From Bispira polyomma (Eukaryota): a DNA stretch of 64,000 nucleotides. The position numbers and the translations under genes are program-made. This document shows positions 7,108 through 55,107 of this stretch, piece by piece; within the stretch, counting starts at the first letter, position 1; the number at the start of each line of letters is the position of its first letter. The stretch spans positions 35,278,001-35,342,000 of the forward strand of contig OZ287749.1 of assembly GCA_965649765.1 (NCBI GenBank), read 5' to 3'. The notes beneath the pieces were generated by a model. The model ran no database searches and was not told the origin of the DNA. It saw nothing but the letters and a program-made list of their open reading frames with translations.

Positions 7108-8586
7108 ACATAACATCCAAGTCTATAGGAGGAGGGTGATATGAGATAAACCAATATTCTCCTGTGTCGTCCACATGGTTAACATATAGTGGAGACTTCC
7201 AATAGACTACTGAACATAACATATGGAGAAGTCATCACACACTGGTGGGCTCAATGCTGCATTTAATTTGTAGACAAATATATCTGTCCAAGCAAAAATT
7301 CGCCTTCTGCAAGGTTATGTATCTACTTCATGGTAATTTACAAGGCCAGAGTTGAAATAAGACTGTGTGATGTGCTGGCCAACAATATATGATTATTATG
7401 GAGACCTGTGGTAAAAGTAACTCTACCCATTTTTGTGATTATTATTCAGACTTGTGGTGTAAGAAACTCAGTTTTGTGATTATTATTCAGTCACCTTCTG
7501 TCTTTGTTGAACTGATTTTTAAAATGATGATATTTTCCATTACTGTGGAATTCAGTATTTATACAAATATATCTTTTTTGTTAAAAACAACGTAAATATC
7601 TTATTTCAACTACCTATTGCCCGAATTTGTGACAAGTTGATGTAAGTTACCATTTTCCACTCGACTAAAACTATTGTAAATTTATTCAGAAAAAATAGCA
7701 TTATATAATGTGAGACCTTAATCAGAATGAGCATTCTCTCTGTGTAAGAATTAAATGAAGTTAAAAAGTAATAATGTTAGGGACATTTAATACCAAAACA
7801 GTCAAACAGGTACAAATAGTGTATGATGTGCCATGGTTCTGAGAACCACAGCAAGTTGATTGTAATACAATGTACCATCAAAGTTAATTGTTGGTTATAA
7901 TGCAATGTGACATTAAGGCTTTCCAGACATATAACACAGCTGGTTGGTCTTTAAGCTACCAATGATTCTACAAACTTTCCTGTGTAACAATAAAAACAAC
8001 AATAAGTCACCAAAAACCATCAATAATATCATGGTATATCAAAACCTAATCAATTTGCCCCCTAATGTCAAAGTATTGATAACACCTCTATTTATAAAGA
8101 AAGCAGACATGTTTGTATTGGACTGTGATATTGTAGTTAGTGAAGGCTATAATTGCTCTGTTATCCCATTAAATACTGACTCTTTACAAACAGAAAGTTA
8201 GATGAAGTGAATGTTCTCGGACGGGTGTTGGTTGGCTTTTAAAAAAACCTAGCCCGGATTTCTCTACCATCTCCAGTCAGATCCGTGATAACTAAATCAA
8301 ATAAATACATGTGCCATCCTCCCTGCTGATTGAGCTAACCTGTAGACATATCCGGACCGACAACTCCTGAGGTTAATACAAACACAAGGAACTAACAGCT
8401 CCAAGAGTAGCAGATATCTGCAGCTAACGACAGGCCATGTTGTGTTTTATGATTCCTTGGGGCATTAACAATGGGCATGTTGTAAGTAGGAAAGTATTAG
8501 AGAGGGAGCAATAAATAGAGAGGGTGTCTCCTAGTATGTGTATAACATGACCCTGTGACTAGTCTCAGTACTTTACTGCTACTGAC

Positions 8587-9345
8587 TGAAATCTGAATCT
8601 ACCAGAGAAGTCATTGTATTGTGTCGACTTAAAATCTAAACCTACTACAGACGTCATTGTATTGTGTGGACTGAAATCTGAACCTACCAGAGACGTTATT
8701 GTATTGTGTGGACTGAAATCTAAACCTACCAGAGACGTCATAGTATTGTGTGGACGTAAATCTGACTACACCAGAGACGTCATTGTATTATGTGGATTTA
8801 AATCTGAACCCACAAGAGACGTCATTGTATTGTGAAGACTTAAATCTAAACCCACCAAAGTTGTCATTGTATAGTGTGGAATTAAATTTGAACCTGTCAG
8901 AGACATAATTTTTTTGTGTGGACTTAAATCTGAACCCACCAAAGACGTCATTGTATGGTGTGGATTTAAACCTGAACCTGTCAGGGACATCATAGTATTG
9001 TAAGGACTTAAATCTGAACTGGTCAGAGACATAATAATATTGTCAGGACCTAAATCTGAACTGATCAGAGGCGTGATAGTATTTTGTGACTTAAATCTGA
9101 ACCTATCAGAGACGTCATTGTATTGTGAGGACTTAAATCTGAATCGGTCAGAGACATATTTGTATTGTTGGGACTTAAATTTAACCCTGTCAGAGAAATC
9201 AATGTATTGTGTGGACTGGAATCTGAACCTGTCATAGATGTTATTGTATTGTGTGGACTAAATTCTGAACCCACCAAAAAACGTCATTGCATTGTGTGGA
9301 CTTAGGTCTTAACCCATCAGAGATGTCATTGTATTGTGTGGACTA
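8587..9345. repeat. 42-bp minisatellite, ~18 copies
   Basis: Unit CTTAAATCTGAACCTACCAGAGACGTCATTGTATTGTGTGGA; gives a 14-aa periodicity in the spurious ORFs. Confidence 0.95.
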
Positions 9346-12300
9346 AATAAAGTCAACCCTAATTATATATTGATTATAACCATCCCAGAATGTGCACACC
9401 AAAAAAGAGTTAATTTGATGTCACTAAGGTATTTGTTAATCATATCATTTGTATTACATGACCTGCACATTGGAGGGTGTAACAGCCAGTAAGTGGCAGT
9501 GTAGAATTACTTTACTTTATCACAAAGAGAAATAGAATATATAAATGTTATAAAAGTCACACAATGATTTCCAATTTCATTTCCGATGATTTCAAATGAT
9601 TTTATATTCTATTCTAAATTAATAATTAAACGAATAACATTATTATGCCCTGTTGTCACTACTCAAGCTTATAAATTTTAATTTTACCAGTTCTTACTTT
9701 TTCTTGAAATATTAAAAATAATACATTTAACAGCAAAAATATGAAAGTAACATTTTGATCACAATCAAACATCTTTGGGACATTTTGGGTAAAAGTGTAG
9801 GAACATATGAACACTCCAGTTTCTGATGATATTACATTTCTGTTAATATGAAAACAATTTCCCAATTGCACGAGCATCCAGCTTAATAAATCAAACTCAT
9901 AAACCCACTGTTATGGCAAATGATGGCAATGTGACGTCACACTGCTGTCCAATACTGGCCAAAATTTAGTTACTCAGTGTGAAGATTTGTTAAATACCTG
10001 ATAGGTTTCAATGGCTTCCTGTAAAACAGTATACCATACACGAAAAGAGGTTGTTTATGCTACACTGGATATTAACTACAAATGTCACATGAATGAACAA
10101 GCATAATTCGAACCCACATCAGTGAGAGGCCAGTCATTGTGAAGCTATTTGTGTTTGTCTTCAAGATAACTCAAACCAAAGAAATAAAGAAATATGTGGC
10201 TCGGTCTGTTTCCGCGTCCTTTAACTTATATGTATGTAAAGCCCAAGTAAAAGACATGTTAGTTTAATATAATCAGTATTTGACAAATAAAGCACCTTAA
10301 AGCTAGGTAAGTTGATAACCAACACCTACATGTGCATGTCGTACCAGTATTAAAAAGTTGCTCTCTGCAGTCTACGTCATTTTTGAAGTTTACTGTTTTA
10401 ATTTGTAAGCTATAGCTTTCTCCCTTTTTGCTGATTGTAATAATTCTCTTATCTTTATTTGCAGAATTAAATATCGCAAAGAGTTGCACACACTAAATAA
10501 CATTTTTCTATTCTGGACAGGCAGCAAGGCAAAAATGGGTGTGTTTGGTCTATTTTTTATGTATAGGTATTCTCTACTGGTTTGCTTTTTTAATGTATAG
10601 GTATTCATTCCTGGTTTGCTTATCTGTAAAAATGGTAAAATAATTTTTAAAATCTCATTATAAATGAGTAATTTATGCCCTAAAAACTGGAAATGACCAA
10701 TCATTATTATTGTCAGAATTTTTAGTGCTTATTTTCGTTGTAACAAATTCTAAGGTGCAAAAAAAAATAAAAACCTAGCCAAAAATCACTGATGATTGAC
10801 GGAAGGAAGTTGTCATCACTACGTCCACCGAGAACAGGCTATGGAACAAAAGCATTATTAAACAGATGACATCAGTTTATTGTGAACAATATTTTGAATG
10901 GCATATAATAGTCCAATACACAAAAAGAAATGATTTGTAACAGAAAAGTTAGCATTATTGAACTGCAGAATGTGCTGGATCGCTGTACATGTTGCTAAAG
11001 TCATGTGCAGTGCAGATTGCTACTTTTTGATTATTAAATGTTATGACTTGTGTATTAGAGTTATTTGGGGTGGGGGATGAGGGTCGTGACCCCTTGGAGC
11101 CCAACCCCTATATCCGCCTGTGCAATCATTACATACATACTTGGAAAAGCAATCCATTATTTTGAGAAATGTCATTCAGTTAATTCATTATTGTTGACGA
11201 TGATAAATTAAGTGACTTTGAAATCAGCAGTAACCTGGCGTAATATAGAATTACTAGGAGATCACTAATTTCAACATAAAAGTTTTAAACAATAAAATCA
11301 TAGTATTTAGTATTAATTGAAACCCGATTTCCATGTTTTTTAAGGAAATCATTTTTAAGGAAATTATATCAATGTAACCATAGCAGCATATTATAGTTAT
11401 TTCAAACTCTACATCATTATCTTTTTATGATATATTTTTTTAATATGTTGACTTTAGATATCAAACTACAGCAACATTTAGATCAATCTGATTGATTAGT
11501 ATCTCATGATGCAACAGAAATAAGCAATGGTATCAAGATCTGGCTGGATGTTAATGTTAAATCTTTCAGCATTCCCCTGATATCTGTTTGGTCTTGTTAT
11601 CTTCTGATTGAATTGTTATCAAGTTGTCAGGAAGTATTAGCGATAAATTAGGACGAAGTTTTTAGATTACAAAAGGACAGAGCATAAAATATTTTGCCGC
11701 ACTATGTTCACTGAATACACATAATAATTTCATCATGATGATTGTTTCTAAAAATATATTGATCCAGTAAAGCATTTTCAAAAAAAGTATGTTGTGTTAC
11801 CCTAATACCACATCAAATTCCCTTTAAAATGCAGGTTCTCTCAATGTAGCAAGAAATGGACAGTCATATTTGACCCACAGAGCCTGTGCAAATATGTCTC
11901 TGTATAGACTTAAACAGTTGTTCCACTGAACATAACAACATTGGCGTCAGTTAATCACGTAATCAGAGTTGGCAGGGGAACCAAGCTCACTCTAACAACA
12001 GATGCAGGAAATCTGCTTTTTACCTGATTTAACCTTCGATCAGTGTAATGAAACGTTACCAGTGGCTCAATTACTAGTCTAAATTAAAATTAAAGTTAGG
12101 GGCGTTGTTTTTATAATGCTTTTGTTTATTGATGACAACGTCTTGCAATGAGTGATTTAATAAAAATGGTGTGTTCTGTGGGATAGGTGTCCTGTACTTT
12201 ACCTTTCACGGTCTACAAAACTGGCAACAGCTCAAAACAGGAAGACGATGCTAGCAAATTGTGTAAGTTTGGTGTCTCGTGTCCATAAATGTGTGGCTTC

Positions 12301-28104: not shown

Positions 28105-29419
28105 TATTTACGCCAATCTAAGTGTTGTTGTTTTTTTGTTTTGATGAGGTTGAAGGGCTCATGCAGCAGACGACTCATTAACACAAGACATGCAGAGCAG
28201 TAGATTGTCCTTATTATCCATACACACGTTGGATTAAATCACTAAACCTCCAGCTGGGAACCTTCACCACCATATTACGTCACATGTCCGGTAGTGAGGC
28301 TGTAGAATACTGAGTGCTCGATCTGTTTATGTAGCCTGAGGGGAGGCTGAGCTTTGTCACAACTCTAGGAGACTTCATAGAAGACCTGCTTTATTGTACA
28401 GACACAGATACTAACTCCAATTTGTTCATTAAGTCAGAACTCTATGAGACCTCCTAGAAGACCTGCTTTATTATACCACACAGATATTGTGTTAATTTAA
28501 GTGAATGTTAGATCAAGAATACTTTTACTGTCGTGTAGGTTGTGAGGAGTCAGCTTTTTGACAACAAATTTCACAATGCATTTTAGCTGGGATTAGAAGG
28601 CTAGTATAGACGGCTGTGTCACTTTTAATGTTTAATTCAAGGAAGTGCTGAAGAGTTGTCTGTGTTATGTAGTAAGGCTCTCAGTCGTTTGGTGTTAAGA
28701 TTGTGTTGGGTATAGATACGGTTTGTGTTGGATATACGTAAGTCTCCGTGAATTCTAAGTAGGTAAGTCTGTTTACATACATCGTTATTGGATACCCAAG
28801 GGATAATTAAAAAAAAAGATTGATGGATTAAGTTTAAGTAGTGAATTCGAAATTTGAAATATCTATGTACATATGTAGTTAGAACTGTGACTTGTGAAGG
28901 TTATGGGTCCACGTCCACCAAATGTTATCAATAGAGAGTTTTTCTGTACAATGGTTTGCTGTGCAGCACACAAGCGGCCTAAACAGAGGCAGAATGACAC
29001 CTGGGCCCGTATTCACAATTGTTTAGCAACCACTCAATTAGATCATGTGAAGTCAAATATTTATTAATGATTATACTACATGGTCATTGTTTATGACGAG
29101 ACTTTTTCCACGTGCAACAGGGAATTAGTATGCAGTTTTAATTTCCCGTTCCATGATAAATTAATGCTTTTTACGGTTTCCCGTCTATTATTTGAATTAT
29201 GTAAACATTGCGCACAACTAATGATTTTTAATATATAAAATAACAGATATATTAACTGTTATATCTGTGTACCTTGTTTTTTATTAAGTCTATATGAGCG
29301 TGTATATGAGCGACAATGGTAGAATTTGATGCAAATTAGGCAATCTATCATCGTTAGGAGCACCCCACCCCCCACCACCACCAACCACCACAAGCACCAA
29401 CTTCCATATGAAGATATTT

Positions 29420-29547
29420 CAGTCAGAATCTCGTCCAGGAAATGAATGAGAATTAAAAGATGGGAGTTAACGACTTGGGAATCTATTTTATTATTCTCTA
29501 AAAGTTAATGATAACATAGGTTTACAAACATGGGGAATTTAAAGCCC
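29420..29547 (-). repeat. Split direct repeat B2 (128 bp)
   Basis: Matches 29886-30013 with 3 mismatches by eye. Contains AATAAA on the - strand (29487-29492). Confidence 0.95.
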
Positions 29548-29723
29548 CAACACAGTATACTAATAAGATACTAAAACACATAAAACATCTTGTAAAACAA
29601 GTTAGTAGTACAACACCACAAGTGTGAATGATTAATACCAACATTAATGGCTAGTTCAATACTAGAACCCATAAAACACGTAAACAAGGGTTGGTGATGC
29701 AGCACCAAACAAGGGTGGGTGGG

Positions 29724-29885
29724 ATTCAAATCATTTAACATAAAAGTTCAATATAATGAGGTGGAGAAGCGATGCAGCCGCTTATATAGTGGGTGGTCAG
29801 CCCCTATTGGTCAAGAGTGGACGAGTCTAAATTTGCACCAGGCGATTCTGACTGAAGGTAATAAACTTTGCGTTTATTACCCCCA
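29724..29885 (-). repeat. Split direct repeat A2 (162 bp)
   Basis: Matches 34811-34972 with 4 mismatches by eye; directly abuts B1. Confidence 0.95.
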
Positions 29886-30013
29886 CAGTCAGACTCTCGT
29901 CCAGGAAATGAATGAGAATTAAAAAATGGGAGTTAACGACTTGGGAATCTATTTTATTATTCTCTAAAAGTTAGTGATAACATAGGTTTACAAACATGGG
30001 GAATTTAAAGCCC
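29886..30013 (-). repeat. Split direct repeat B1 (128 bp)
   Basis: Copy of 29420-29547; begins 16 bp after the YR stop codon. Confidence 0.95.
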
Positions 30014-30029
30014 AAGCCCAAAACAGCAT

Positions 30030-31001
30030 TTATGTAGAAGAATTTACCAAATGTTGGAAAGTAAGAGGGACCGTGTTAGTTTGAGAAGTATTGGAGCTAA
30101 GGTAAGACCAGACTGCATCACTCCTCCATGTACCATGCATACGAATGCTGTCCACATCTACATTCGCATCGTATGCTAACGTCGCTGCAGAACGACGAAA
30201 CGTATGGAAGCCATGCCCTAAAAGAGGCACTTCCATGATTCTTAGAATTGAAGCTAACCTGCGTCTAAGCATAGACTGGGTCAATATCTCATAGTGATCA
30301 GTCAAGAATAGAGGATCTTGGGGTGGTAATTTGAATTTGTCAAGCAGTGATTTGAGAGCCTGAACTGGGCACATGAGGGGATTGTTCACACAAGGTAACT
30401 TTATGATATGAGGTTGGCTAGGCGCCTGCAAATTCTTAGCCCATTTCAATGCTATATGGGCACCTGGGTATTGAAATGTCGCGTCCTTCCTACAAATGTT
30501 CCTCATGGGGTCATATTGTGTACTGGAGGTAGGAGCAATGTTGGATATTCTGAGGAAGCCATAAAAGGCCACTAAGAAAGCTGTTCAATATGTAAGTGAA
30601 CTCTCATACATGTTGCATAAACGTGAGATCTCATTCAACTGCTGAAGGGAGAAAATGCTTTTGGTTCTCATGGTACGGGGACCTGTGTGCATAAGGGACT
30701 TTAGGAACTTTTTAACTATTGGTGCCTCAAACACCATATGGGGCAGGGAGTATTTAATGAAGAAAAATTTGAGTGCTGAGACATAGTTCAAAACCACCCT
30801 ATATGTTACACTTTGTGATGCTAGAAACTCCATAAACATTAACATGGTCGCCTCAGACCCACAATCACGAATCTGATTAACAATATTAAATGCCACAAAC
30901 AGTCTGAACTGGTTTTTGTACTGCCTCTGGGTGTTGGGTCGTATGGCATGCAAAGATCTCTGCATAGCTGCGTCCAACATGGGTAGCAAATGAGGTGACA
31001 C
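30030..31001 (-). pseudogene. Tyrosine recombinase of the Ngaro element, one in-frame stop
   Basis: ORFs 31001-30585 and 30572-30030 are in the same frame, separated by one TGA (Y*TAFLVAFYGFLR). Catalytic motifs: FLRISN (R), HTFRR (HxxR), HGTWRSDAVWSY (W...Y). Confidence 0.9.
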
Positions 31002-31009
31002 AACTACAA

Positions 31010-31711
31010 TTAAAAATCAAACAAAAACATCATGTCCCGATGTACATTTTCTATGATACTGTCAGTAAAGTCATTCCTAACTTGACTTTGACTTGAACGG
31101 GACAACTTATCAGCTATCTGGTTAAGTTTACCTGGTATATGTGACACTGTGAGTTTTATATTGTATTTTGCCACTATAAGCCACAAATTCCTGAGAACTA
31201 AGGCCAAAAAAGAGTCTCTGGTTCTACCAGTAGAAATTACACTGACTGCACTTTCATTATCACAACAAATGTGAATGTCCGAATTTTGCCATTGTGGCCC
31301 CCATAACCTTAGGGCAACTAAGACGTTATACATCTCATAATGGGTAATGGATAGAATGTTTAAAATTGGTGAGGGAATAGCCACCGAATACACATGCTCT
31401 TTCCACACGCCTCCCAACCTAGTCAGAGTGGCATCTACAAATACCTTGTCTGGACGAGAATCACGCTCATAATACACTATCCCATTGAACTGCTGTAAAA
31501 AGACTATAAACCATAAAATGTCCCCTCTGTATGCCTCGTCGGCAGGAAAAACCTGTTGGTCCTTGTTAAGTCTCAATAAGGCCAAGAGCCTATTAATAAA
31601 GACTCGAGAGCCAGGAACACATTTAGATATATATAATAATTTACCTAGTAATGATTGGAGTGATTTGTTGGTTACCTGGTGGACTATGATACTAGTTTTA
31701 CATGTAGTCAT
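31010..31711 (-). CDS. RNase H domain of the Ngaro pol (frameshifted from RT)
   Basis: LQSLLGKL, VFVDAT, HYEMY, CCDN and HIPGKLNQIADKLSR give the D-E-D-D set typical of DIRS-type RNase H. Removing one base from a 7-A run near 31725 would join it to RT. Confidence 0.9.
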   Translation of the reverse strand: MTTCKTSIIVHQVTNKSLQSLLGKLLYISKCVPGSRVFINRLLALLRLNKDQQVFPADEAYRGDILWFIVFLQQFNGIVYYERDSRPDKVFVDATLTRLGGVWKEHVYSVAIPSPILNILSITHYEMYNVLVALRLWGPQWQNSDIHICCDNESAVSVISTGRTRDSFLALVLRNLWLIVAKYNIKLTVSHIPGKLNQIADKLSRSSQSQVRNDFTDSIIENVHRDMMFLFDF

Positions 31712-32966
31712 AATATCCTGTATTTTTTTCAGGGGAGATTCTAAATTCTCGCTTGGTCATGTCAATTTGTATGCCCATAACGGTAAAACACGTGGTGGGA
31801 GGGACAATTTTCTTCGGGTTCAGAGGAAAACCTAGGGATTTAATTACTGCAAGTAGAGTTTCAAAAGCAGCTTGTGCCTGGTCCTGATGACAAACTGCAT
31901 AAATGTCATCTATATAGTTGTACACTGTGTAACCATGTAAACTCATGATGTATCTTATGAAATCTGAGCATCGCTGGAAGATAGAAGTGCCATGGACAGC
32001 CCCGAAGGGCAAATTTCGATCCAGATAATACCTGCCATTCCATGATAGGCCCAGATGCATGACATCTGCAGGGTCCATCCTGATATTACAGAATGCTCTG
32101 GAAATGTCGGCCTTATATAACCTAGCTTTATCACCTAACTGGGTGAGCTGAGGAATTAAATCATTAATATGGGGAAGAACTAATGTGAACTGACTATCGT
32201 CATAAGTTTCTCTACACGTGGCTTGGTTGACTGAGGTGTCCCCATATGAGAGATCTGAAATAACCATTTTTGCAGAGCCGCTATCTTTATCTCTGGTCAT
32301 GAGGGGGGCCCAAGTAAACTCCGAATGTGAAATGTTTTGGAAATGGCCTAATAAGGCTCCCTCCTTTAATTCAGTGGAAATGTATTTTTCAATGGCTTTG
32401 CGTTCACATTTCGCAGAATGGTGGTTCTCAGAAGCAGTATTACTGATATGGTGATTGGGGGCTAGGCCTAGGGGAAACCCATATTTGACATAGTCAAACG
32501 ATCTCTGGTCATGATAACCATTTCTATACTCATTCCAACCTTGCCAATGAAGGCCTGAAGGGAGAGGAAATCTACAACCTTTATAATTGGGGACACCCGA
32601 GTCCTTGATTTGATCAGCCATGTACAAATAATGTTCTAAACTGTCAATGTCTACTTGAGGCCCTTCTGGGGCATTTACAGCCAAAGTATCACTCGCTACG
32701 AAACCAAATTTTCTATTGAAAGGAACTTTATTTTTAAACTTAACTTCTTTATCTAAACCCTGGTGTACGGGAGGCCAGGTCTCCCAACAAGTGTCTTGTG
32801 ATATCTGATCTCGAGGATCATTACCTACGAGTTGAGTACCCACACTATTACAGAAACACATGTTATGCCTGACACATTCAGGGGTGCAAAGTCTAATAAG
32901 GGGAGCACCTACAAACGCACTCACTTTTAAATCTTTAAGATTATTATAAGGGCCATGCTTGTGCAT
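31698..32966 (-). CDS. Reverse transcriptase of the Ngaro pol
   Basis: 422-aa ORF with DLS, KADISRAF, LPFG, YIDD and LGFPLNPKK motifs. Confidence 0.92.
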   Translation of the reverse strand: MHKHGPYNNLKDLKVSAFVGAPLIRLCTPECVRHNMCFCNSVGTQLVGNDPRDQISQDTCWETWPPVHQGLDKEVKFKNKVPFNRKFGFVASDTLAVNAPEGPQVDIDSLEHYLYMADQIKDSGVPNYKGCRFPLPSGLHWQGWNEYRNGYHDQRSFDYVKYGFPLGLAPNHHISNTASENHHSAKCERKAIEKYISTELKEGALLGHFQNISHSEFTWAPLMTRDKDSGSAKMVISDLSYGDTSVNQATCRETYDDSQFTLVLPHINDLIPQLTQLGDKARLYKADISRAFCNIRMDPADVMHLGLSWNGRYYLDRNLPFGAVHGTSIFQRCSDFIRYIMSLHGYTVYNYIDDIYAVCHQDQAQAAFETLLAVIKSLGFPLNPKKIVPPTTCFTVMGIQIDMTKREFRISPEKNTGYYDYM

Positions 32967-33105
32967 GCCAGAAATTAAACTGTAAGAGTTAATTATTGAT
33001 AGTCTCGTGCCTTCTCCCCTATGACATGAGGCCGTTGTATAAACAGGACACCCGCCACCACTAATCTTAATTAAATTAGAGTCATGTTGTGATGAATCAG
33101 TACAA

Positions 33106-33251
33106 TCGTGTCAGTCCTATTCAGTGGTAGATTTCTTCTTATTTTGGCATTCCCCCTCTGTGTGGTTATTCGCTCTAAAACGAGCGAATAACCACACAGA
33201 GGGGGAATGCCAAAATAAGAAGAAATCTACCACTGAATAGGACTGACACGA
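33106..33251. repeat. Perfect palindrome, 70-bp arms with 6-nt loop
   Basis: 33106-33175 is the exact reverse complement of 33182-33251; loop TAAAAC. Confidence 0.97.
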
Positions 33252-34743
33252 CACGACCTTAAAGCAGTAGGAACAAATATGCCTAAACAAGGTCTGTCCA
33301 GAACTGTCTTGATGGTCACTGGAATGAGAGCATGAACCCTCGTTCCACCATTTACACGCGACCTTCTCAGTAGTAGTTGAAGTGGTTGCTGTGGGAGTAG
33401 TCTTAGGAAGGGTCACAGATCCACTGAAAACTGCAGTTTGGGAATAAGTTAGCCTGTTGTCCCCCAAGATGCGTGTGTCTGTCCAATTGATGGAACCATC
33501 CTCGATTTGGTGCATGCTGACAGCAAATGTCCCTCTCGCGATGTGCCAAGATAAATTTTCACTAAGTTTAATTGTCTCATCCATCTCAGTCAGCATGGCC
33601 CTACTAATGATGGGGTCAGGATATTTTTAACTAGGCCAATTACAAAATTGCCCATTGTCAGGTCATCGTAAGTCTGTATTTTCCTATTGAGCCCAGTCAA
33701 GCAGGCCTCATTGGGCCATTTCATGTGGGAGGAGGCATGAGACGTCTCAGCTGTATTATATCTGCCGCCTTTACGATGGCGCCCACTTGTCCAATCTCCA
33801 GTTTGACACAAGCTTCAAGTGCAGCAATCCTCTCGTCCACCAGGAGCTGCACCATTGGATTGGCTCTCAGGGATTCCAATGTAGTGGGGCTATCAGGGTC
33901 CATTTCCAACGCACGTTTCCTATGATCACCTGCTGTGGCAGTACACATTGGGTGATGTGGCTGTTGTATCTGTACCGGCCACCCATATTGGTCCTTATAG
34001 GGAAACATGTTATTGAAGTTCATGTCTCGTGGTATGTCTCCGTTACTATGTTGCATGAGAGCCTGTATGCACGGGGTCTGCACGCCAGAGTTCAATATAG
34101 CCTGAGTATTAAATGGCTGTGGTGGTGTCCCGTTTGGTTGCTGCCAGTTCCCCCCTCCCACGAGAGGTTGTATTGGGGCCAACCCTGGTGTCTGGGAGGC
34201 GAGATCTTGTCCCATAGCGGGATCCTCATTCTCTAGCGTCAACTTATGCTTCTTGTTCTTGGCTGGGGTTTTCTTTGCTTTGGTTGTGTCTCGTACGAGA
34301 ACTGCTGTGTCTGCGAATGTCTTAGAATACCTAGAAGCAGGACTAGTCAATACTGTGCCCGCAGTAAATAGGGGCTCTTGGTCATCTGTCTCGACTCTCG
34401 AGGTCAAAATAGTCTCAGGTTCTCGCAAACGAGGAGTGTCCACTTTCGCAGAGAGGCCTATGACCCTCTGTTCCAAAGACATCAATTGATTCTGCACTGA
34501 GGCCAGGACAGAGCTTAACATAGCATCATTGCTTTTGCTGGAATGGCTACGGTGATGTGTTTGTTCACTCTCCTTGGAGGGTATCTCCTGATGACCCACC
34601 TCACGCCGGTCACTCTCCTTACCAACTTTTGTAGGAGTCGGTTTTTTCAGACAACGCGAGTTCACTGGTCTCTCATGTTCCTGATCACATTTCTTGCAAA
34701 ACGCAGACGTCTTTTGATTACTATCCTGTGGGGCAGTAGCCAT
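33117..34743 (-). pseudogene. Gag-like ORF1 of the Ngaro element, two frameshifts
   Basis: Three consecutive ORFs (34743-33721, 33811-33590, 33596-33117). N-terminal Cx2Cx3Hx7C, central WPNE/YDDL motifs, C-terminal CKWWNEGSC...H...HICSYC...H...C fingers. Collinear with the second gag at 35.8-36.9 kb. Confidence 0.8.
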
Positions 34744-34810
34744 AACACAAAATCAGGGAAGTACCCGTCACTAAAAGTATTTAAAAAGGAATAAGCCCTA
34801 TATGGAATTC

Positions 34811-34972
34811 ATTCAAATCATTTAACATAAAAGTTCAATATAATGAGGTGGAGAAGCGATGCAGCCGCTTATATAGTGGGTGGTCAGCCCCTATTGGTCA
34901 AGAGTGGACGAGTCCAATTTTGGACCAGGCGATTCTGACTGAAGGTAATAAGCTTTGCGTTTATTACCCCCA
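34811..34972 (-). repeat. Split direct repeat A1 (162 bp), 5' end of the Ngaro element
   Basis: Copy of 29724-29885; ends about 67 bp upstream of the gag ATG. Confidence 0.95.
34842..34897 (-). promoter_or_regulatory. Pol II core promoter in repeat A: CCAAT, TATATAA, Inr
   Basis: Minus strand: CCAAT 34897-34893, TATATAA from 34875, TCATT with its A at 34844 (31 nt from the TATA start). Duplicated in A2. Confidence 0.65.
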
Positions 34973-35799
34973 AACTGTTTCTGACCTTTGACTCGGTAGT
35001 AATCGCTTACATATGTTATCTTATATCTGTTTTTCTGTGAATAGCAACTAATAGACGAAGTCTCAACTTGGAACCCGTTTTCCGTCTGAGACTTGAGACC
35101 TCTTTGTGAATATGGCCATTGGACAGCTATGCCATTGAAAAAATGTGTCCTCTGTTTACAAGGGTGTACACTCACTCATGTCACTGAAGATACCTATAAA
35201 ATGGGCTATAATAGACTTGTATGTGCATATAACTGGTGTAATTAAAGTAAGTTAGGCTCCTTGTTAACTCTACTTCTTTAAGGGACCTCGCTAACTATAC
35301 TTTATCAAAGAGATAACATAGTATAGACATATACCCTAGCCTTAACCTAAATATACAAAAATAAAACATGTACAAACGTAACTAAAAAACAAACAATTAC
35401 TGTGTTAAATGTGAATTGTTTAATGGTTGTATGATACATGTCAATCAGATGTATATAAGGTAATAATTCCCCATTAGATGTGCATGTATACAACACCCAC
35501 AACACACCACCTGACTGCAGCTTGTATTCTCAAGGTGTCTGTCCCTTTTTTTACAGACAACTTTCAACTTTTGTACTTTCCATGCCATTAAATAACATGG
35601 TTTCATTATAACTTAACAATAATTTTAATAATTATCTCTTGATAGAGCGCAGTTATGGACATCACCGTTATCTATATAAATTATCTTTGACATCATTACC
35701 CCAGCCTGGATTTTTCCAATTGTTCAGTCTTAGAAGCATACTAGGTACGTATGGTGCATCAAAGGCTTAAAAGCCTGGTCAGTTTCTGTTTCAATCCTG

Positions 35800-36965
35800 T
35801 AGCTAGACCAAGGTGTGTGATATGTGATGAAGCGTTTGACAGTCTTGTAACAAAATGCACAAGCATGCTTTTGGAGAGTATTTTCCTCTACATGGTCACT
35901 ATCTTGATTACAATGACCTCTATTGAAAAATCTACACGGGACAGGTTGGTTATTTTGACCAGCCTTTTTTGTCTGCTGCTGCGGTGGGTAAATTGTGCGT
36001 TGAGTATATCTAGCCCGTAGGCGATTGACAGCCTCAAAATTAGACCATGTTAATTTCCCTCGTTCCATTTCTAGTAAAAGAACCTTGTGTGCAGTTTTGG
36101 CAGTAAACCAATTGGTTTCTTGTGCATCTTGAAATAGAATTTGGCAATACTGCAACATATTTTGCCTTATTTGGGGATCAGTTTGTTCAAGCACACATCC
36201 AATAAATCCCTGACTGAACTGAATACCAGTAAGATCATCATATGCCACATTCGACCTGTCATTACTACAACAATACTCATGGGGCCATGTGATATCTACT
36301 TTAATATGATTGTCACCATTACGAAACAAACCAGACTTTAACTTTTTACCTTGTAATTCAGTCCCGTGGGCTTCATCTAAGGAGGTAAGGTGAGAATCTA
36401 CACGCCTCTGTAATTGCACATTATTCTTCAAAAAGGTAGCTGAAGGAACCACTAATTTATCTACATCTTCTATCTCAGGGTCGGGAGCTCGCCTAGCTTT
36501 CTGCACTTCCTTAGCCCACTCGGTATCAGACATAGGCACTTAGCCCGCACATGGTGGTGATTTCGCAGGGGAAGTTAAGCTAGGGGCTTTCTGAGTAAGG
36601 TCATTAGCGCAGACTTGCTTAAACATCTGAATATCTTTAAGTCTATCACCTTTCACTTGCTGCATCTGCTCATCCAGCTTCTTCAGGTGTTGCATGATGA
36701 CGTCCAGCTTGTCCACTACAGGAGCCTGAGCGGTGTCGGAAGCAGCATCTGACCTCTCGTCTGGTTCGGTGAACATCTGTCCAGCAGGAATCTGGAAATC
36801 GTCTGGGCAGCCAGAGGCATTCTCTTCAGTCATCTTGCCAAGGACCAAATCTTCTGTGGTACTCAACGTAAACGGGCAGCTCTCCCCCACAGGCTTGCAG
36901 TGACGACTGTCACACTGGTAACAATAAGCAATGTTCTTCACAGCCCGCTATAGCTGGCTTCTCAT
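35800..36965 (-). pseudogene. Gag-like ORF of a second, truncated Ngaro/DIRS-type element
   Basis: ORFs 36941-36540 and 36539-35730 are in frame across one TAA. An in-frame ATG at 36965 is followed by an early TAG. Motifs Cx2Cx3Hx7C, KLKSG, WPHE, YDDL, LLEMERGKLTW and CRFFNRGHC...HACAFC. No RT follows. Confidence 0.8.
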
Positions 36966-41531: not shown

Positions 41532-41646
41532 CCAACTTTTTCTTGTTGATCTTGGGAATATAAAGTTTCATTGATTTGGTAATGATTCTCAGCATAAATG
41601 ATTTGTTTTCATGTGACTAGGGTTTCCAATCACATATAAGACATAT

Positions 41647-43803
41647 GTGACATGTTGTAATTACAGGATATCATAGTGTGACTTTTTATAATTTCAGGAT
41701 ACTAAAGTGTGACTTGTTGTAATTACAGGATACCATAGTGTGACTTGTTGTAATTACAGGATACCATAGCATGCCATGTTGTAATTACAGGATATCATAG
41801 TGTGACTTTTTATAATTACAGGATACTAAAGTGTGACTTGTTGTAATTACAGGATATCATAGTGTGACTTGTTGTAATTACAGGATACCATAATGTGACC
41901 TGTTGTAATTACAGGATATCATAGTGTGACTTGTTGTAATTACAGGATATCATAGCGTGACTTGTTGTAATTACAGGATACCATAGTATGACTTGTTGTA
42001 ATTGTATCCACCGAAGCAATTCTTGGCGGATACTATGGATTAGTCATTGTTACTCCGCTGCCATCGCCACCGCATCAGTGTGTTTAAAGATTTTGCCATT
42101 ACCGCTCTCCTGGAAAAACTTTTCCACCTAGGCTCCTGGAATTTACAGGAAATGTTCTTTATTACAAAACCTTGCCTGGCAATAATTTTGGCCTTATTTT
42201 GACAAACAAGATGGCCGCCACGGGCATTTCTTTCAAAATTATCAGGCTTTTAACTGTGTCTGTTTCTCAGCTGTAGAAGGTTGAATCTCTTTACGGATGA
42301 TATGTTTAATGAATATATATGTCCTTTATAAGCATGCAGACATTTAACCTTAAATCTCCTCATTCAAGGTCATTGACAGAGTGCCAAAGTACCCCAACTG
42401 AGATTTTGGCCAAACTTTCCCTAGTGCCTATATCTCGCTTAATATTGGTCCTATAGGTTTGGGATCTCAAACAAACCTATAGGAAATCATGGGCTGGGAA
42501 TCTTTTCATGTTGTCAGGTTTGACCTTGGGCCCCTCGTTCAAGGTCAAATGCGGATGGCCAAACTTAAAAGTGCCTATATCTAGCTTAATATTGGTCTTA
42601 GAGGTTTGGGATCTGAAACAAAACTATAGCAAATCATGGGCTGCGAATCTCTTTATGTGGTCCGATTTGACCTTGGCCCTCTTGTTCAAGGTCAAATGAG
42701 GATGGCCAAACTTTAAAGTGCCTATATCTCGCTTAATATTGGCTCTACAGGTTTGGGATCTGAAACCAACCTATAGGAAATCATAAGCAGGGAATCTTTT
42801 GATGTGCTCACATTTGACTTTGGCCCTCTCCTTCAAGGTCAAACAGGGATGGCCAAACCTAAAACTGCCTATATCTCACTTATTTTTGGTCAAACAGGTT
42901 TTGGATGTGAAACCAACCTATAGGAAATCATGGGCTGGGAATCTTTTGATGTAGTCTGATTTGACTTTGGGCCCCTCGTTCAAGGTTAAATGCGGATGGT
43001 CAAACTTGAAAGTCCCTATATCTCACTTATTATTGGTCCCAGAGGTTTGGACTGCCAAACCAACCTACAGAAAATCATGGGCTGGGAACTTTTGATGTAC
43101 TCAGATTTGACCTTGGGCCCCGTGTTCAAGGTCGAATGCGGATGGCCAAACTTAAAGGGTCTATATCTCGCTTATTAGTGGTCCGACAGGTTTGGAATGC
43201 AAAACCAATCTATGCAAAATCATGGGCTGGGAATCTTCACATGTACTCTGATTTGACCTTGGGCCCCTCTTTCAAGGTCAAATGCAGATGGCCAAACTTA
43301 AAAGTGCCTATAACTCGCTTATTATTGGTCCTACAGGTTTCAAATGTGAAACCAACCTGTACGAAATCAAGGCCTGGGAATCTTTTGATGCGTTCCAATT
43401 TGACATTTGGCCCCTCGTTCGTCAGTCTTGGTCAAACTTAAAAGTGTTAATTACAGGATACCATAGTGTGACTTGTTGTAATTACAGGATAGTATAGTGT
43501 GACTTGTTGTAATTACAGGATACTATAGTGTGACTTGTTGTAATTACAAGATACCATAGTGTGTCTTGTTGTAATTACAGGATACTATAGTGTGACTTGT
43601 TGTAATTACAGGATACTATAGTGTGACTTGTTGTAATTACAAGATACCATAGTGTGACTTGTTGTTATTACAGGATATCATAGTGTGACTTGTTGTAATT
43701 ACAGAAAATTATAGTGTGACTTGTTGTAATTACAGGATACCATAGTGTGACTTGTTGTAATTACAGGATAGTATAGTATGACTTGTTGTAACTACAGAAT
43801 ACT
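41647..43803. repeat. 31-bp minisatellite split by a 1.45-kb insertion
   Basis: Unit GTGTGACTTGTTGTAATTACAGGATACCATA; about 11-12 copies on each side (41647-42003 and 43448-43803). Confidence 0.95.
42002..43447 (+). mobile_element. Helentron-associated (HINE-like) element with ~7 internal 146-147-bp tandem repeats, 3'-truncated
   Basis: 5' TTGTATCCACC subTIR, hairpin 42004-42033 and a degenerate (CCG)n tract, a ~350-bp core shared with 59.4-59.8 kb, then 147-bp units each containing ATTTGACCTTG...CAAGGTCAAAT. Confidence 0.75.
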
Positions 43804-44380
43804 TGAGTGTCACTGAATGGTTTGTAATAATAACGTACTCATATAGATTACAAGTGAAAAAAATGTACCCATACAAAACATTAGGTCTTCCTATTTTATT
43901 TTAAAGGCACTTATATGAATTCATCCCTGGTTTTTCTCGCTGCTGAATTATGGCCTCCCTCAATATCTCTCTTATTACAAATCTTACCAACATGATTTTT
44001 TCAGGTCTCTGTAGGCGTGGTCAACTCTAACCCTAACCCTAACCAAAACATATAACTGACATATAACATTTTTACCTTTGACTTTTACAAAGGTCACATG
44101 ATCCATAACATTGTTTTTATGTTACGCATACTTGTCTCCAACTTTTCTCTTTTCTCTTACTTCTATAAGATTTGGTTTATGCATTATATAAGATAATATC
44201 TGGACGCAAGTCGATTTTTGGATCAATCAGGGAAATAATGACCGATTGATGGGCGATTGAATAATAATAACTCCTGCATTAATTATCTCTGTTATTGTAT
44301 GTGTGCTAGATATGTGTATCTATATAATAACATACATACGTAGAAGGAGTTAGGGGAATTACCAGCCCCTTGTGCAAACA

Positions 44381-50294: not shown

Positions 50295-52502
50295 GTGAGT
50301 AAGGAGGAATGTGTATGTGTAATTCCACTCTACTCATGCTAGTGGCGTGGCCAATATATTACACAGTCAAAATACAACTATCTTATTGGAACCATCTTTA
50401 TGAAAGCTCCCTGGCTAAAACTCATTAATCTTTCAGCTCAAACCAACGTTAGTTAGATCTTTACCCATTGAAGTCTATAACCAGTTTTTCCCTGAAACAA
50501 GATATGAGAAAATAAATGACCTTGCTGTGTTACCTTTGACAGTTACCGTTAGATACTTTACTTAGAAATGTTAAAACTAATGGTATTCATATGCTTCTCA
50601 CAGTAATAGTTTTAGATTGGCTATGTTCTATGGACTGTAATATAATCATGAAATAGATATTCCATATTTATTTGTTTTTATTATGTGTGCTGTAAACAAA
50701 ACAATGAACGCTTTTAATATTCTGTCCAGTAAAAATAAGAGAAATACTGAAGGTTAGTGAACCATTTCATTATGGCAAAGAGCTTTTTGGTGTATTTTTA
50801 GCAAAGAATACAAACTCTCCAACGTAGTTATTCTCAGAAGTAGTTTACCCTCATCCCCAGCAAAGATCTATATCACGTGGACAGCTTGGTTATATGGCTT
50901 AATAAGAATCATTCCAAGCCTTTCATCCTGATGGTTTGTTCTGGGTTCTCAATCCCTTGACTTTCCACTCCTATAGATTCATTACTGTAGAAGACGTGAG
51001 ATAGCAACTCACTGGCCTTAACTCACAGTGTTCCCAGTTAAAACTTCATGACACGCTGTGCTACTCACACACTTAAACTTGTATACATTAGCTCATTCAT
51101 TATGTGATATATTCTAACAAGTTCCTTTTAAAAAAACAATACAAATATGAACATTTCGACCAATGTTGTTAATATACAGAGTTGGAAAGGTGAGTAATGT
51201 CCATATATTTGAGCCTCAGCCAGGCTAGGTGTTACATTAGGGGATCTACTACACGTCAGTCTACACTTACCACAGTAATGTCTATAAATATTTCAGCCTC
51301 AGACAGGCTAGGTGTTACACTGGATCACATGGGATCTACTACACGTCAGCCTACACTTACCAGTCTACTCGCCCCAACACAGGGACTTAAACTCACCTCC
51401 AGCTACCGCCTTAGCCTTCAGTTTAATAACACCTATAATTACTCAGATAATTACTTAAATTCGTATCTTCTGTCATTGTTTCCCTGAATTCAGACACCAA
51501 CCTTCAAAGCTTTCACTCTACCCACCAGTGTAGCAGCCTGTAGTTACCGCCCACCACCTTTACAGATCCTACTCGGGTATATAGACAAACAGCCACCCTC
51601 CTGTCGGTACTTCTGGCCCTAGTTAAATCAAAGGCACGAGTGATTGAAATCCCTTCTATTTTTTTTAATTTTTTTTGTCTTTTTTATTTGTAGGTTATGG
51701 AGCGCTGATGTAGGAAGTGATTTGCCTGTGTCAATCTATTAAACAGAAGAAAAAAACGTGTATGGAAATGTGAGCTCTGTATCATTATTTAGAGCTGAAC
51801 AGTTAAAAGTCGTTTTTTGCTAATTGAGGGATGTCTTTAAAGAGAAGTCAGTGACCAGAGAGAAAGCTACAGTGAGGGCCAATAATACTGGACTTGTATC
51901 CACTAGTACTGTGCTCCCGGGAGATGGACAGCACTTGACCTCAACAGTCACCCCTGGAAAAAAGTCGTCTGCTCAAGTCATGTTCTACACCTCACTGCTA
52001 CAAAACAATCAATTATATTGGCGGGAAAACGGGCCGTTTTCTAAAAGCGGTGTCTGCTGTCACTAATCAATTAAACCCCTCCAATCTTGTCAATATTTGT
52101 CTCACTCTGTGTTAATACTTGATAAATACAGAGAACTGGATGAAAAGTGTATGTCTGTCTACACTACCTTGTTTATAACTTTGTTCACCTGATTTGTTCA
52201 GTTTACAGAAATGATCCTGTTTCCCTTTTCCATGGAGAAAAAAAGCACAACCACGCTCCAATTAAATTAGTAGAGCAGGAAGATATTGCTTTCCCACTAC
52301 AAAAACACAACTCCATTTAGAGCACACGTGGTTGGGAGTTGCTTTTCTATTTGACTTCAGCATATTAGTTTCCCCTTCCTCTCTAGACGGAACCCCTCAG
52401 GGAAAAACAACACTCTTAATAAGGTTTGCTTAACGTTGCCAAGGCACCCCAGCTGATTCCTTGTAATCTAATCCCTCATTGGTTCCGCCCTGTTTACTAT
52501 AC

Positions 52503-53903
52503 ATGTCTAAAATGTCAGTTTTCCTAGTTGCCCCGGCCAATGAAAAGCAGTGTATTGATTCCACAGAAGAGTTACTGACGACCACTTCCCCAGTCTCGGA
52601 TTGCAGCAGTAGTGCTGATGCAACGAAAGCGGTGACAAGTGGCGCGGGAACAGAGCACAGCAGGCAGACGACATTTAAAGAGGACGGCAGTGAGGGTGTG
52701 TTTGGTGAGGTAATTACTGTGAGTAAACTAGTGGGTCAAGATGGTGGCAGGGTTCTGGGGATGGACCCCCGTACATTATCAGCCTGTACTCACAATACAC
52801 AGGCAAACCAGTCTTTTAGTACACACCCTATGAATAAAGGCACTGTCAACGACGGATATAGCTCTGGGGAGATTGAGCTCAAATATTACGGACCTGGTAT
52901 GAGTAATAACAACAATTCTAATGGGGAGACAGAAAAGACTGGTACTTCTCTGAACAGCAGTAACTCCCCGGCTGCAGGGGGCAACACTAGCAGTAACAGA
53001 AGCCCCAGTGGTTGTAGTTTTCACAGTACAGGGGGCTTACTAGGGTCCCCTGCTACCAAAAAAATGCCCTCCACCACGAAGACGGATAGCGATGGCAATT
53101 CCCAGGCAGGGATCAGCTCTGGTAGTGGTAGTAGTAGTGCTCAGCAGAAATATCAGTGTATTGATGAATCTGGAGCAGACAGTTGTAGTGAGAGCTCCCC
53201 CAATGTTGGCTTGGCTGCACTCAAACAACAGCACTCAAGCATTACAACAGCACACCATCACACAGCCTCTCCACGCTCTCTGCTAGCTAACACACCTAGT
53301 GTCCTACTCCGCGGTGGAAGTTTGGATGGTGCGTCCACTCTGGCCCCCAACGACAGTCAAGTAGGAGCGCGTCTAGAGGACGGTTGTGCAGGAGGAGGGG
53401 GTGGAAGCAGCCGACAGAGGGTATATGACACCCAGGGAATTAACGCTGGTCTAGAAGGCCGCCGCTCATTTAGGAATAGCCAGCGGAACACAAACCCCCA
53501 AGTACATGCCAACAGAGAGTCAGGGTTATCGGACATTGGGGCAGATTATCTGAGAGTCAATGGGGCCATACGTCCATTCAAACAGCTACAGAAGCCCATC
53601 TCTACACAATCACTTCCCTCGTCCACACAAATGAGTTTTAATAGTGAGGACTGTAGTGGCATTGCCCTAGTTGGGGTGGATAAAGAGTACCCCAAATATA
53701 CTGAGGAACAACTCGCAAACAATAAGCCTGTCCCTGGCACAGAGGACATTGACAAGCCCAACGTGGGCTATAGGCTCGGTAAAAGGAAAGCCCTATTTGA
53801 AAAACGTAAACGGATATCTGACTATGCTCTGGTGTTCGGTATGTTTGGGATAATTGTGATGGTAGTGGAGACAGAACTGTCCATGGCCAAAGTTTATGGA
53901 AAG
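52503..53903 (+). CDS. KCNN: Small-conductance Ca2+-activated K+ channel (SK/KCa2), N-terminal coding exon through S1; 3' partial
   Basis: The ORF ends in [43 protein letters not shown], the conserved SK pre-S1/S1 sequence. Phase-0 donor AAG|GTAGGT at 53903/53904 matches the known SK intron position after S1. The 5' boundary is uncertain: ATG 52503, acceptor TTTTCCTAG ending at 52527, or a later Met. Confidence 0.93.
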
Positions 53904-55107
53904 GTAGGTTTAGACAACTTTATTATGTGTTCATATGTGAACACTGTGTATATTTTAACCCATTTTAGATAAAATACCTGTATGTATTAAGCAGTTGCAC
54001 GTAATATTGTTCTTTTGTTAAAACCGGTTAGTGTAGTTATTAAATTGCATGTTTCACCTTGAAAAAATTATTTCTCACAAACTTATTGCAGTATTTAGTA
54101 ACTATGATAAAATACATTAGATAGGGAGGCTAAAAAAAGCAACCATATTGGCTGCTAGATGAGATGTAAAGTGAGATGTTGTTTAATGGAGTGCCTACAG
54201 CAACACGTAGATTGAGTCCTTGACATTTTACAGGCTACATTGTTTAATTACCTTCTCAGAGTTCGCTAAAAATAGCCAAGAAGTAAAAAAGGGCTGCTGC
54301 ATTTTTGTATCTTGGTTGTGCCGCCTTTAAAAGCCTGTGTAGCGAGTAATCAGAGCTGGCCTTTCTCCCCCACTTCCATTAGTGGCATTGTGTCCTGTGT
54401 AAAAGAGCAGCTCATCCACAATGAATGAGGCTTGTGACCTGTGGTCTCTCTCACCTTGTACATTGAAGGGAAGGCCCCAATCCTCAGCTCTACCAATATT
54501 CTACTCAGACCTTTGGCTTGTTTTCTCTTCAAACAATCTTATTATTAGGCTGGTTACCGCTTTTCAAGGCAACTAAGCTCAATACATTAATTACTGTATG
54601 CAGGTTCACCAAGTAAATAGCCAGATCACTGGTCTGATCTTTGGGTATTTTTTAGAAGACACATCAATGCATGTGAAGTGAAATGGAGATAAAAGAACTG
54701 TGCACCTATCTGAGGTCATTGAAATGGCATGTTTTTGTATGAATTAATTGTACACCAGAGAAGTCAGTTCAGGCATATGTATGTGTATATAATGATCGAT
54801 CCACTTGATACTGAAGTACACAAACAAAATAGCACACTAAAGAATTGCGTAGTGAGCAATCCCAAAGAGAACAGCTGTGTTGTACAAAGCAGCAGCATCT
54901 CTATATTTACATCTCTACAGACTCTTTACAGTAACATCATCAAGCTCAACAACACACAGCCCCCCCCCCCCTCTATACCACCCCCTCCCTGTACAGCTAG
55001 CCCACTCTTTTTTATCCTATATATTGGGAAGTGCTGGCTCACTCATTACTCTCTCTATGACTACTCACTTTTACAGCCACACATCCAGACTGCTGTCCAG
55101 GTTTTCT

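Follow-up and report, generated by a model that had tools for sequence, protein, structure and literature searches.

The window, a stretch of 64,000 nucleotides from the genome of Bispira polyomma (1.04 Gb, 75 contigs), carries on its minus strand a decayed retrotransposon whose parts are collected in Table 1. Its split direct repeats are arranged as A1-ORFs-B1A2-B2, and its domains follow in the order reverse transcriptase (RT), RNase H, and tyrosine recombinase (YR); A1-(ORF1, RT/RH, YR)-B1A2-spacer-B2 is the layout described for Ngaro elements (PMC8547959, PMC9210276). The copy is degraded, with a stop inside the YR and with both ORF1 and ORF2 in fragments. Judged by its sequence, the TATA-like box of A1 is likely a promoter, in which case transcripts would miss the A arm of the hairpin described below. 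Elsewhere in the window, an open frame of 501 codons (52467-53972, plus strand), the end of which matches the SK potassium channel family, is likely the large first coding exon of a host gene, and minisatellite or satellite arrays with periods of 31, 41, 42, 44, and 147 nt occupy positions 8584-9347, 18041-19065, 27765-28207, 41534-43933, and 59436-60735.

Table 1. The Ngaro element of the window and the stems of its B1|A2 junction (window positions).
Feature	Positions	Strand	Remarks
Decayed Ngaro element	34972-29420	minus	5553 nt
A1, 5′ split direct repeat, 162 nt	34811-34972	minus	Element 5′ end at 34972; 98% identical to A2
TATA-like box within A1	34869-34875	minus	CCAAT about 20 nt upstream; sequence reading; same offset in relative L191
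ORF1, gag-like, in pieces	33117-34752	minus	C-terminal Cys/His cluster; ORF reading
RT and RNase H	31010-33110	minus	Split over two frames in the window copy; RVT_1 E 1e-13; RVT_3 E 2e-4
Tyrosine recombinase (YR)	30030-31016	minus	Stop near 30585 breaks the frame; PF00589 and PF02899 matched above cut-off by an open-frame relative
B1 repeat	29886-30020	minus	Poly(A) signal 29953-29958; terminal invariant ACTG box 29889-29886
Crossover point B|A (circle-junction equivalent)	29885-29886	minus	Border of middle stem and unpaired spacer
A2 repeat	29724-29885	minus	
Spacer separating A2 from B2	29555-29723	minus	
B2, 3′ split direct repeat	29420-29554	minus	Element 3′ end at 29420; host DNA at 29418-29419
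Inner stem	29857-29866 with 29872-29881		5-nt loop
Middle stem, with ACTG/CAGT box inside	29844-29854 with 29886-29896		11 bp in the family, one mismatch in the window copy
31-nt extension	29855-29885		Unpaired spacer (29855-29856 opposite 29882-29885), inner stem, and loop
Second inverted box, within the extension	29879-29876		Sense +7 to +10
Distal stem (29818-29825 with 29896-29903) and side palindrome (29825-29838)	29818-29903		Palindrome degraded in the window copy; least conserved part

No methyltransferase follows the RNase H: in the window copy, as well as in L113, L081, L284, L289, and L286, the ORF continues for only 27-35 amino acids past the RNase H match, and a match reaching to about 30 residues short of the ORF2 end leaves no room for such a domain. 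The methylase family likewise had no match among 11 proteins. By its layout, its domain order, and the absence of both a methyltransferase and a target-site duplication (see below), the element is a member of the Ngaro superfamily of the DIRS order, and it resembles the published Ngaro elements in all these traits (PMC8547959, PMC9210276, PMC13465315, PMC4157794); the portions of these four descriptions accessible to us give neither a fold nor a cut site at B1|A2. Unlike some described Ngaro elements, it has no SGNH hydrolase ORF, only about 10 nt separating the recombinase stop from B1. DIRS1-like elements are described with a methyltransferase, long inverted terminal repeats (ITRs), an ICR in inverted form, and NTT as a trinucleotide common to both ends, whereas the present element has direct repeats and no shared trinucleotide; a DIRS1-like identity was rejected, the window element having no inverted terminal repeats, ICR, or shared terminal trinucleotide. 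Inside ORF1 there is a perfect 70-nt inverted repeat with a 6-nt gap (33106-33251); contigs of other copies skip its second arm (joint 33175 to 33255), and the repeat is therefore either a fold-back duplication private to this copy or an error in the assembly. Directly upstream of the element lies a second, older ORF1 of the same kind (35730-36947, minus strand; 24% identical over 139 amino acids, E 5e-17). The host sequence harbouring the element is a high-copy repeat (29300-29419 and 34973-35100), whose empty copies show the uninterrupted target.

All comparative data come from one genome, B. polyomma GCA_965649765.1. A search for the YR gave 151 matches, from which 140 whole loci were taken, and the B1/B2 boundaries were set by self-comparison of the loci, blind to any motif. 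Every cluster of at least three copies broke at ACTG|TG. In a motif-guided pass the junction was present in 91 of the 140 loci, the other 49 being without a motif junction. Two further searches and 31 more regions, again with motif-blind boundaries, added 13 distant junction types; these distant loci (L201-L291) partly overlap, most are without a repeat boundary, and L271, with an A match starting off-motif, was excluded. We then worked with 27 representatives, one for each junction type, which were selected by visual inspection. The identity among their YRs is 21-84% (median 35%), and a tree covering only copies from this genome places them in four supported clades. Metagenome and viral contigs, scanned with profiles, contained no relative, and the 148 homologous proteins that were found came without accompanying DNA. 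The B end carries ACTG in 27/27 representatives, and the break follows ACTG in all of them. A partner box lies 23-40 nt into A, downstream of the break, in 26 of the 27, as exact CAGT in 24; L241, which is without it, was omitted from the pair counts. Among the loci, L113 and about 35 near-identical ones form a young family with repeats 99-100% identical and open frames, which, as far as sequence can tell, points to recent activity of the group in this genome.

The sequence-only reading had proposed that the B1|A2 junction folds into a three-segment hairpin, and all six arms that it listed read correctly. The three stems form beyond chance: as DNA, the 86-nt junction stretch folds at -20.2 kcal/mol (z -6.6, 0/200 shuffles as good) and the other strand at z -6.2; over the junction folds of both strands z is about -5.3 to -6.8, and the RNA fold gives the same picture. 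The genomic ends do break in the bulge, between 29885 and 29886, and A ends and B begins at the same base in all 30 loci of the window family. As had also been stated, the outer stems exist only where B and A are joined; taken with the flanking DNA, the two ends of the inserted element fold at no better than z -1.1 and +1.9. An element with split direct repeats indeed carries hidden inverted complementarity. The details required some revision. The middle stem of 7 bp is true for the window copy, where B1 has a change at 29894, yet it is 11 bp long in most copies; the perfect 10-bp inner stem owes its perfection to base 29865 of the window copy, where a G-T pair (plus strand) or an A-C mismatch (minus strand) is found in A1 and in most copies. 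Besides the 11-bp middle stem, family members mostly show one non-canonical inner-stem pair and, separating the middle from the distal stem, a side palindrome. As for the 13-nt complement reported at the outer end of the element, 11 nt stand and the TT at 29418-29419 is host DNA, since the two bases preceding B vary among copies and the empty-site contigs join 29419 to 34973 with 0 shared letters.

Compensatory changes across Ngaro families had been suggested as a check of the fold. Within this one genome, pairing beside the ACTG box is indeed kept by two-sided change. Pairs -1 to -4 are nearly invariant (25, 26, 26, and 25 of 26 Watson-Crick), while the variable pairs -5 to -7 are still paired in 57/78 cells, against 23.1 ± 4.2 with partners permuted among families (0/10,000), although neither this nor the following permutation counts are exact probabilities, given the kinship of the families and the choice of the best-pairing candidate as the partner box. 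The nine families of the window clade contain 16 cells with two-sided change (0/500 shuffles) and are 77% paired, compared to 31-44% in slid controls; five families of another clade are 94% paired (4/500 shuffles). The inner segments have no common sequence between clades, and their mean fold is -4.1 kcal/mol, compared to -1.7 for halves swapped between families; taken alone, the inner segment is better than 95% of its shuffles in only 10/26. For the distal stem the covariation is modest (16/20,000 permutations; own partner within the top 5 in 11/26), and in only 15/26 is the junction unsurpassed in stability by any other 60-mer within about 200 nt. RNAalifold on a MAFFT alignment recovered the outer stem and missed the inner one, because 4 of 9 families pair one column off. 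Overall, the junction fold is conserved as a structure, with an inner stem that is family-specific in sequence. A chance pairing or an assembly artefact, for which the weak folds of some representatives (L275, L289, and L291) could be quoted, is hardly credible in view of z values of about -6 and a junction recurring in 91/140 loci, and is refuted by the covariation.

The position of the break within this structure is very regular. On the sense strand (window minus) the break directly follows the last paired base of the ACTG stem, at the border with the unpaired spacer, and the first position past it is a T-T mismatch in 24/26. At positions +2 and +3 (52 cells) we counted 17 Watson-Crick pairs, 19 G-T pairs, and no A-C. 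A second inverted box, a degenerate N-A-R-Y located in the inner stem, starts at +7 in 13, at +5 in 7, and at +8 in 2 of 27 representatives. A single bulge occurs at +10, on the cut arm, in 8/26, and bulges elsewhere were seen once on the cut arm and once on the other arm. The middle stem is the predicted binding arm of the cleaving recombinase.

We then considered the ends of the insertions and their targets. Located from internal anchors, 69/72 A1 and 79/84 B2 ends lie at the junction base (19 and 7 loci, respectively, are without that end in the fetched stretch); larger deletions, indels, a misplaced anchor, or tandem units seem to account for the off-canonical ones, and a shift of 4-8 nt is found in none of the 72 A1 and 84 B2 ends. 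The homology of the flanks to the junction is at most 2 nt (71 left, 79 right). No target-site duplication was found: after removal of five doubtful or tandem rows, direct repeats over 64 sites equal those of shuffled pairs, bar one 5-mer, and the empty-site joint of the window element shows 0 overlap. The flank homology and the direct-repeat counts also reject a shared trinucleotide microhomology of the DIRS1-like kind. On the other hand, the target sequence is biased, mainly on one side, in a way that resembles the ACTG box: it holds 1.16 bits at -5 to -1 compared to 0.27 at +1 to +5 (null mean 0.15, 99.9% 0.36). In the families with a 6-nt spacer (n = 41), G at -5 in 18, A at -4 in 24, T at -2 in 28, and T at -1 in 24 echo GACT; over all targets, -1 is G in 9/87. 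In the same families +1 is A in 28/48 (p 3e-4) and T in 11/48; this A pairs with the opposite T of the hairpin and not with the base of the duplex. In the 4-nt-spacer clade +1 is unbiased (A in 17/47) and +6 is A in 28/47, like the second box of the element itself. These splits by spacer length were made after seeing the data, and the idea that +1 is always A fails overall (34/79, p 0.07), holding only in the 6-nt-spacer families.

A two-strand exchange over a mismatched overlap should yield two types of ends. From the homogeneous ends we infer a single exchange at the junction; Loot et al. (10.1101/2022.09.11.507474) similarly argue from end homogeneity for a single cleavage at attG, and replicative resolution has been shown for integrons (PMC3458562). 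Since one-strand exchange is also known for the double-stranded attP of VGJ-phi, homogeneous ends are no proof of a single-stranded donor. Indeed, both inverted boxes and the 6-nt spacer exist in duplex form as well, which keeps alive a different reading: the donor would be a double-stranded circle with an ordinary two-box core site, integrated by one exchange as in VGJ-phi, and the hairpin would act elsewhere, for instance in protecting or positioning single-stranded cDNA ends at circle closure. With a Cre-like recombinase (see below), a double-stranded circle as the standing DIRS model (PMC7192593), and VGJ-phi as a precedent (PMC4246890), this is the strongest of the alternatives; we nevertheless consider it unlikely. 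It leaves unexplained why the fold rebuilds exactly both boxes, why an unpaired spacer begins at the break in 24/26 families, and why A exceeds the duplex-homologous T at +1 in the 6-nt-spacer families. Moreover, VGJ-phi needs homology on the exchanged side, which is absent here. On the other side it has none (PMC4246890).

Tyrosine recombinases become linked through a 3′-phosphotyrosine to the arm that they bind, and this arm is located 5′ of the cut. It is only on the sense strand that the paired ACTG box, like the target bias, is found 5′ of the break, and the chemistry therefore points to this strand as the substrate. The sequence-only reading had folded the plus strand, which does fold well; it is the chemistry that favours the minus strand instead. 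The folds add a weak preference, the sense fold being of lower energy in 18/26 and the G-T pairs at +2/+3 (19, against no A-C) favouring sense, while the inner stems show no strand preference (mean z -1.6 vs -1.8) and the inner mismatch of the window family favours antisense. That the folded substrate is instead the antisense first-strand cDNA, i.e., the window plus strand, we regard as improbable. This cDNA is the first single-stranded DNA made and accumulates in DIRS-1 (PMC7192593), and in the window family it folds equally well, its inner mismatch becoming a G-T pair. However, its cut would be expected 31 nt inside A, and no such ends were observed; moreover, a target bias 5′ of the cut exists for the sense strand alone. 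Since the cDNA that accumulates in DIRS-1 is mostly linear and of antisense polarity (PMC7192593), the scheme proposed below has to postulate a sense single strand or a cruciform, which is its weakest step.

The sequence-only reading had taken the junction as the site of recombination or priming, which may act as a folded single strand. The recombination part is supported by the covariation, the position of the break, the single type of ends, and the one-sided target bias, the folding itself being predicted; priming is less likely in view of the poly(A) signals, which lie 52-243 nt before the B end in 25/27 representatives. TATA/CCAAT motifs are found about 75-220 nt into A in the window clade. 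Given these positions, transcripts would miss both outer ends, and an RNA hairpin is predicted only at the internal junction. A role in RNA or cDNA during reverse transcription (self-priming of an ACTG-3′ end on the CAGT box, a template jump, a pause, or a packaging signal), with the overlap with the crossover a mere consequence, appears to us somewhat less likely still than the duplex donor. No primer is known for this class and a terminal hairpin has been proposed as the primer of DIRS-1 (PMC7192593); the slightly favoured sense strand is that of the RNA, and the fold is stable as RNA. Against this, the poly(A) signals make a free ACTG 3′ end in RNA unlikely, priming at A2 would presumably bypass the spacer and B2, and the copy of the ACTG box in the target points to recognition by a protein. 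Rfam also gave no family at the gathering level for the junction, the one match (E 0.43) being at chance level.

The recombinase was modelled from an open-frame relative with AlphaFold2 (55-row alignment, pLDDT 90.5). The best match of the model is Cre (Z 19.1, rmsd 4.0, 269 residues aligned), followed by XerA, IntI (2a3v; Z 16.5, rmsd 4.1, 243 aligned), XerH, and Tn1549 Int. The modelled YR is thus closer to Cre than to IntI and shows no special link to IntI.

Taken together, predicted folds and sequence comparisons suggest that the junction hairpin is probably a folded sense-strand attachment site of the attC/CTX kind, integrated by one strand exchange plus replication. The internal junction templates both genomic ends, and the B|A joint would be restored during reverse transcription, with the internal B1|A2 as template. 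As a free single strand or an extruded cruciform, the sense strand of this joint would then fold and set the two inverted boxes face to face over an unpaired spacer of 4-7 nt. One recombinase monomer would cleave after ACTG and its partner would cleave behind a degenerate G-A-N-T-W in the chromosome; a single pair of strands would be exchanged without homology, and host replication would resolve the junction. By separating the arms of the hairpin, integration would leave outer ends that no longer form a site.

A close parallel is the attC site of integrons (PMC5027507, PMC3458562, 10.1101/2022.09.11.507474), in which, as described there, structure is kept without sequence except for a short box at the cut, the cut is at the outer stem beside the spacer, the genomic target is short and degenerate, and the ends are homogeneous, all as seen or predicted for the Ngaro junction and its insertions. 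An attC is built of an R box, an unpaired central spacer, an L box, extrahelical bases, and a variable terminal structure (PMC5027507), and the Ngaro junction shares the two stems parted by an unpaired spacer, the variable terminal loop, and a frequent single bulge. The two differ in several respects: the box is AAC in attC and ACTG here, where no microhomology is present at the cut; the extrahelical bases of attC lie near L″ (PMC5027507), which we read as the other arm, whereas the Ngaro bulge is on the cut arm and is missing in most families; the modelled recombinase is nearer to Cre than to IntI; and the donor would be made by reverse transcription, its use as a single strand being predicted. 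Lacking AAC and microhomology, the junction is not an attC site, yet it likely works like one. As described in PMC4246890, attP(+) of CTX-phi is likewise a site paired within one strand, lost on integration, and joined by one exchange that replication finishes; the attP of VGJ-phi shares the single exchange completed by replication and shows that a double-stranded donor is possible. Both phages use the host XerCD at the fixed dif site, whereas Ngaro encodes its recombinase and has dispersed targets.

Among the retrotransposons, the joined ends of DIRS1-like elements consist of an inverted repeat plus an extension of 9-75 nt, mostly 26-48 nt in the table rows available to us (PMC3266345), close to the 23-40 nt found here. 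For DIRS-1 itself, a self-complementary junction, a terminal hairpin, and single-stranded cDNA have been noted, with the double-stranded circle retained; according to the same source, no experiments had addressed the specificity of the recombinase, and amplification of the circle junction did not succeed (PMC7192593). A far-reaching view would make Ngaro the eukaryotic counterpart of integron cassettes, with a folded sense-strand junction, one homology-free exchange, and host replication; the same stem-plus-extension geometry would recur in DIRS1 (ITR plus right extension), one hidden hairpin site would serve all tyrosine-recombinase retrotransposons, and the double-stranded-circle model would be wrong for the class. 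We put this forward tentatively, as a generalization that may well not hold. Our literature search found no account of a folded Ngaro junction; Goodwin and Poulter (2004) and Poulter and Butler (2015), which may mention a hairpin, were outside its scope. Within the accessible text of PMC9210276, PMC3783388, PMC4157794, and PMC13465315 the word "hairpin" is absent, and that of PMC8547959 and PMC6681497 contains no relevant passage on a junction. The integration of tyrosine-recombinase retrotransposons is poorly understood, and this locus with its relatives predicts the strand that folds, the cut, the two bound boxes, and the target. If the proposed scheme is true, recombination through single-strand hairpins, described so far in bacterial integrons and filamentous phages, would extend to animal genomes, carried out there by a Cre-like enzyme and needing no homology, and would account for insertions with exact ends and no duplication.

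Contigs of three DNA runs cannot reveal circles, whose junction would be indistinguishable in sequence from the internal one. Several loci show rearranged copies. L292 (G000:C8:57134752-57146697) contains three head-to-tail copies connected through B|A junctions, with a period of 5502 equal to the A1-A2 distance, and reflects unequal crossover or a concatemeric cDNA. In L127 and L146, A and the spacer recur after B2 as a tandem repeat of the terminal unit. L014, L015, L018, L028, L029, and L030 are solo A-spacer-B elements and one single-B element, matching the recombination expected between split repeats. In L283 (1592-1726 as oriented) an in-place inversion covers the first 135 nt of A1, which are 100% identical to the reverse of A2. 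Finally, an inverted segmental duplication probably gave rise to L231 and L232 (G000:C7:12454575 and C7:12463237), two copies of one family that lie in inverted orientation at a distance of 8.7 kb and share their B2 flank.
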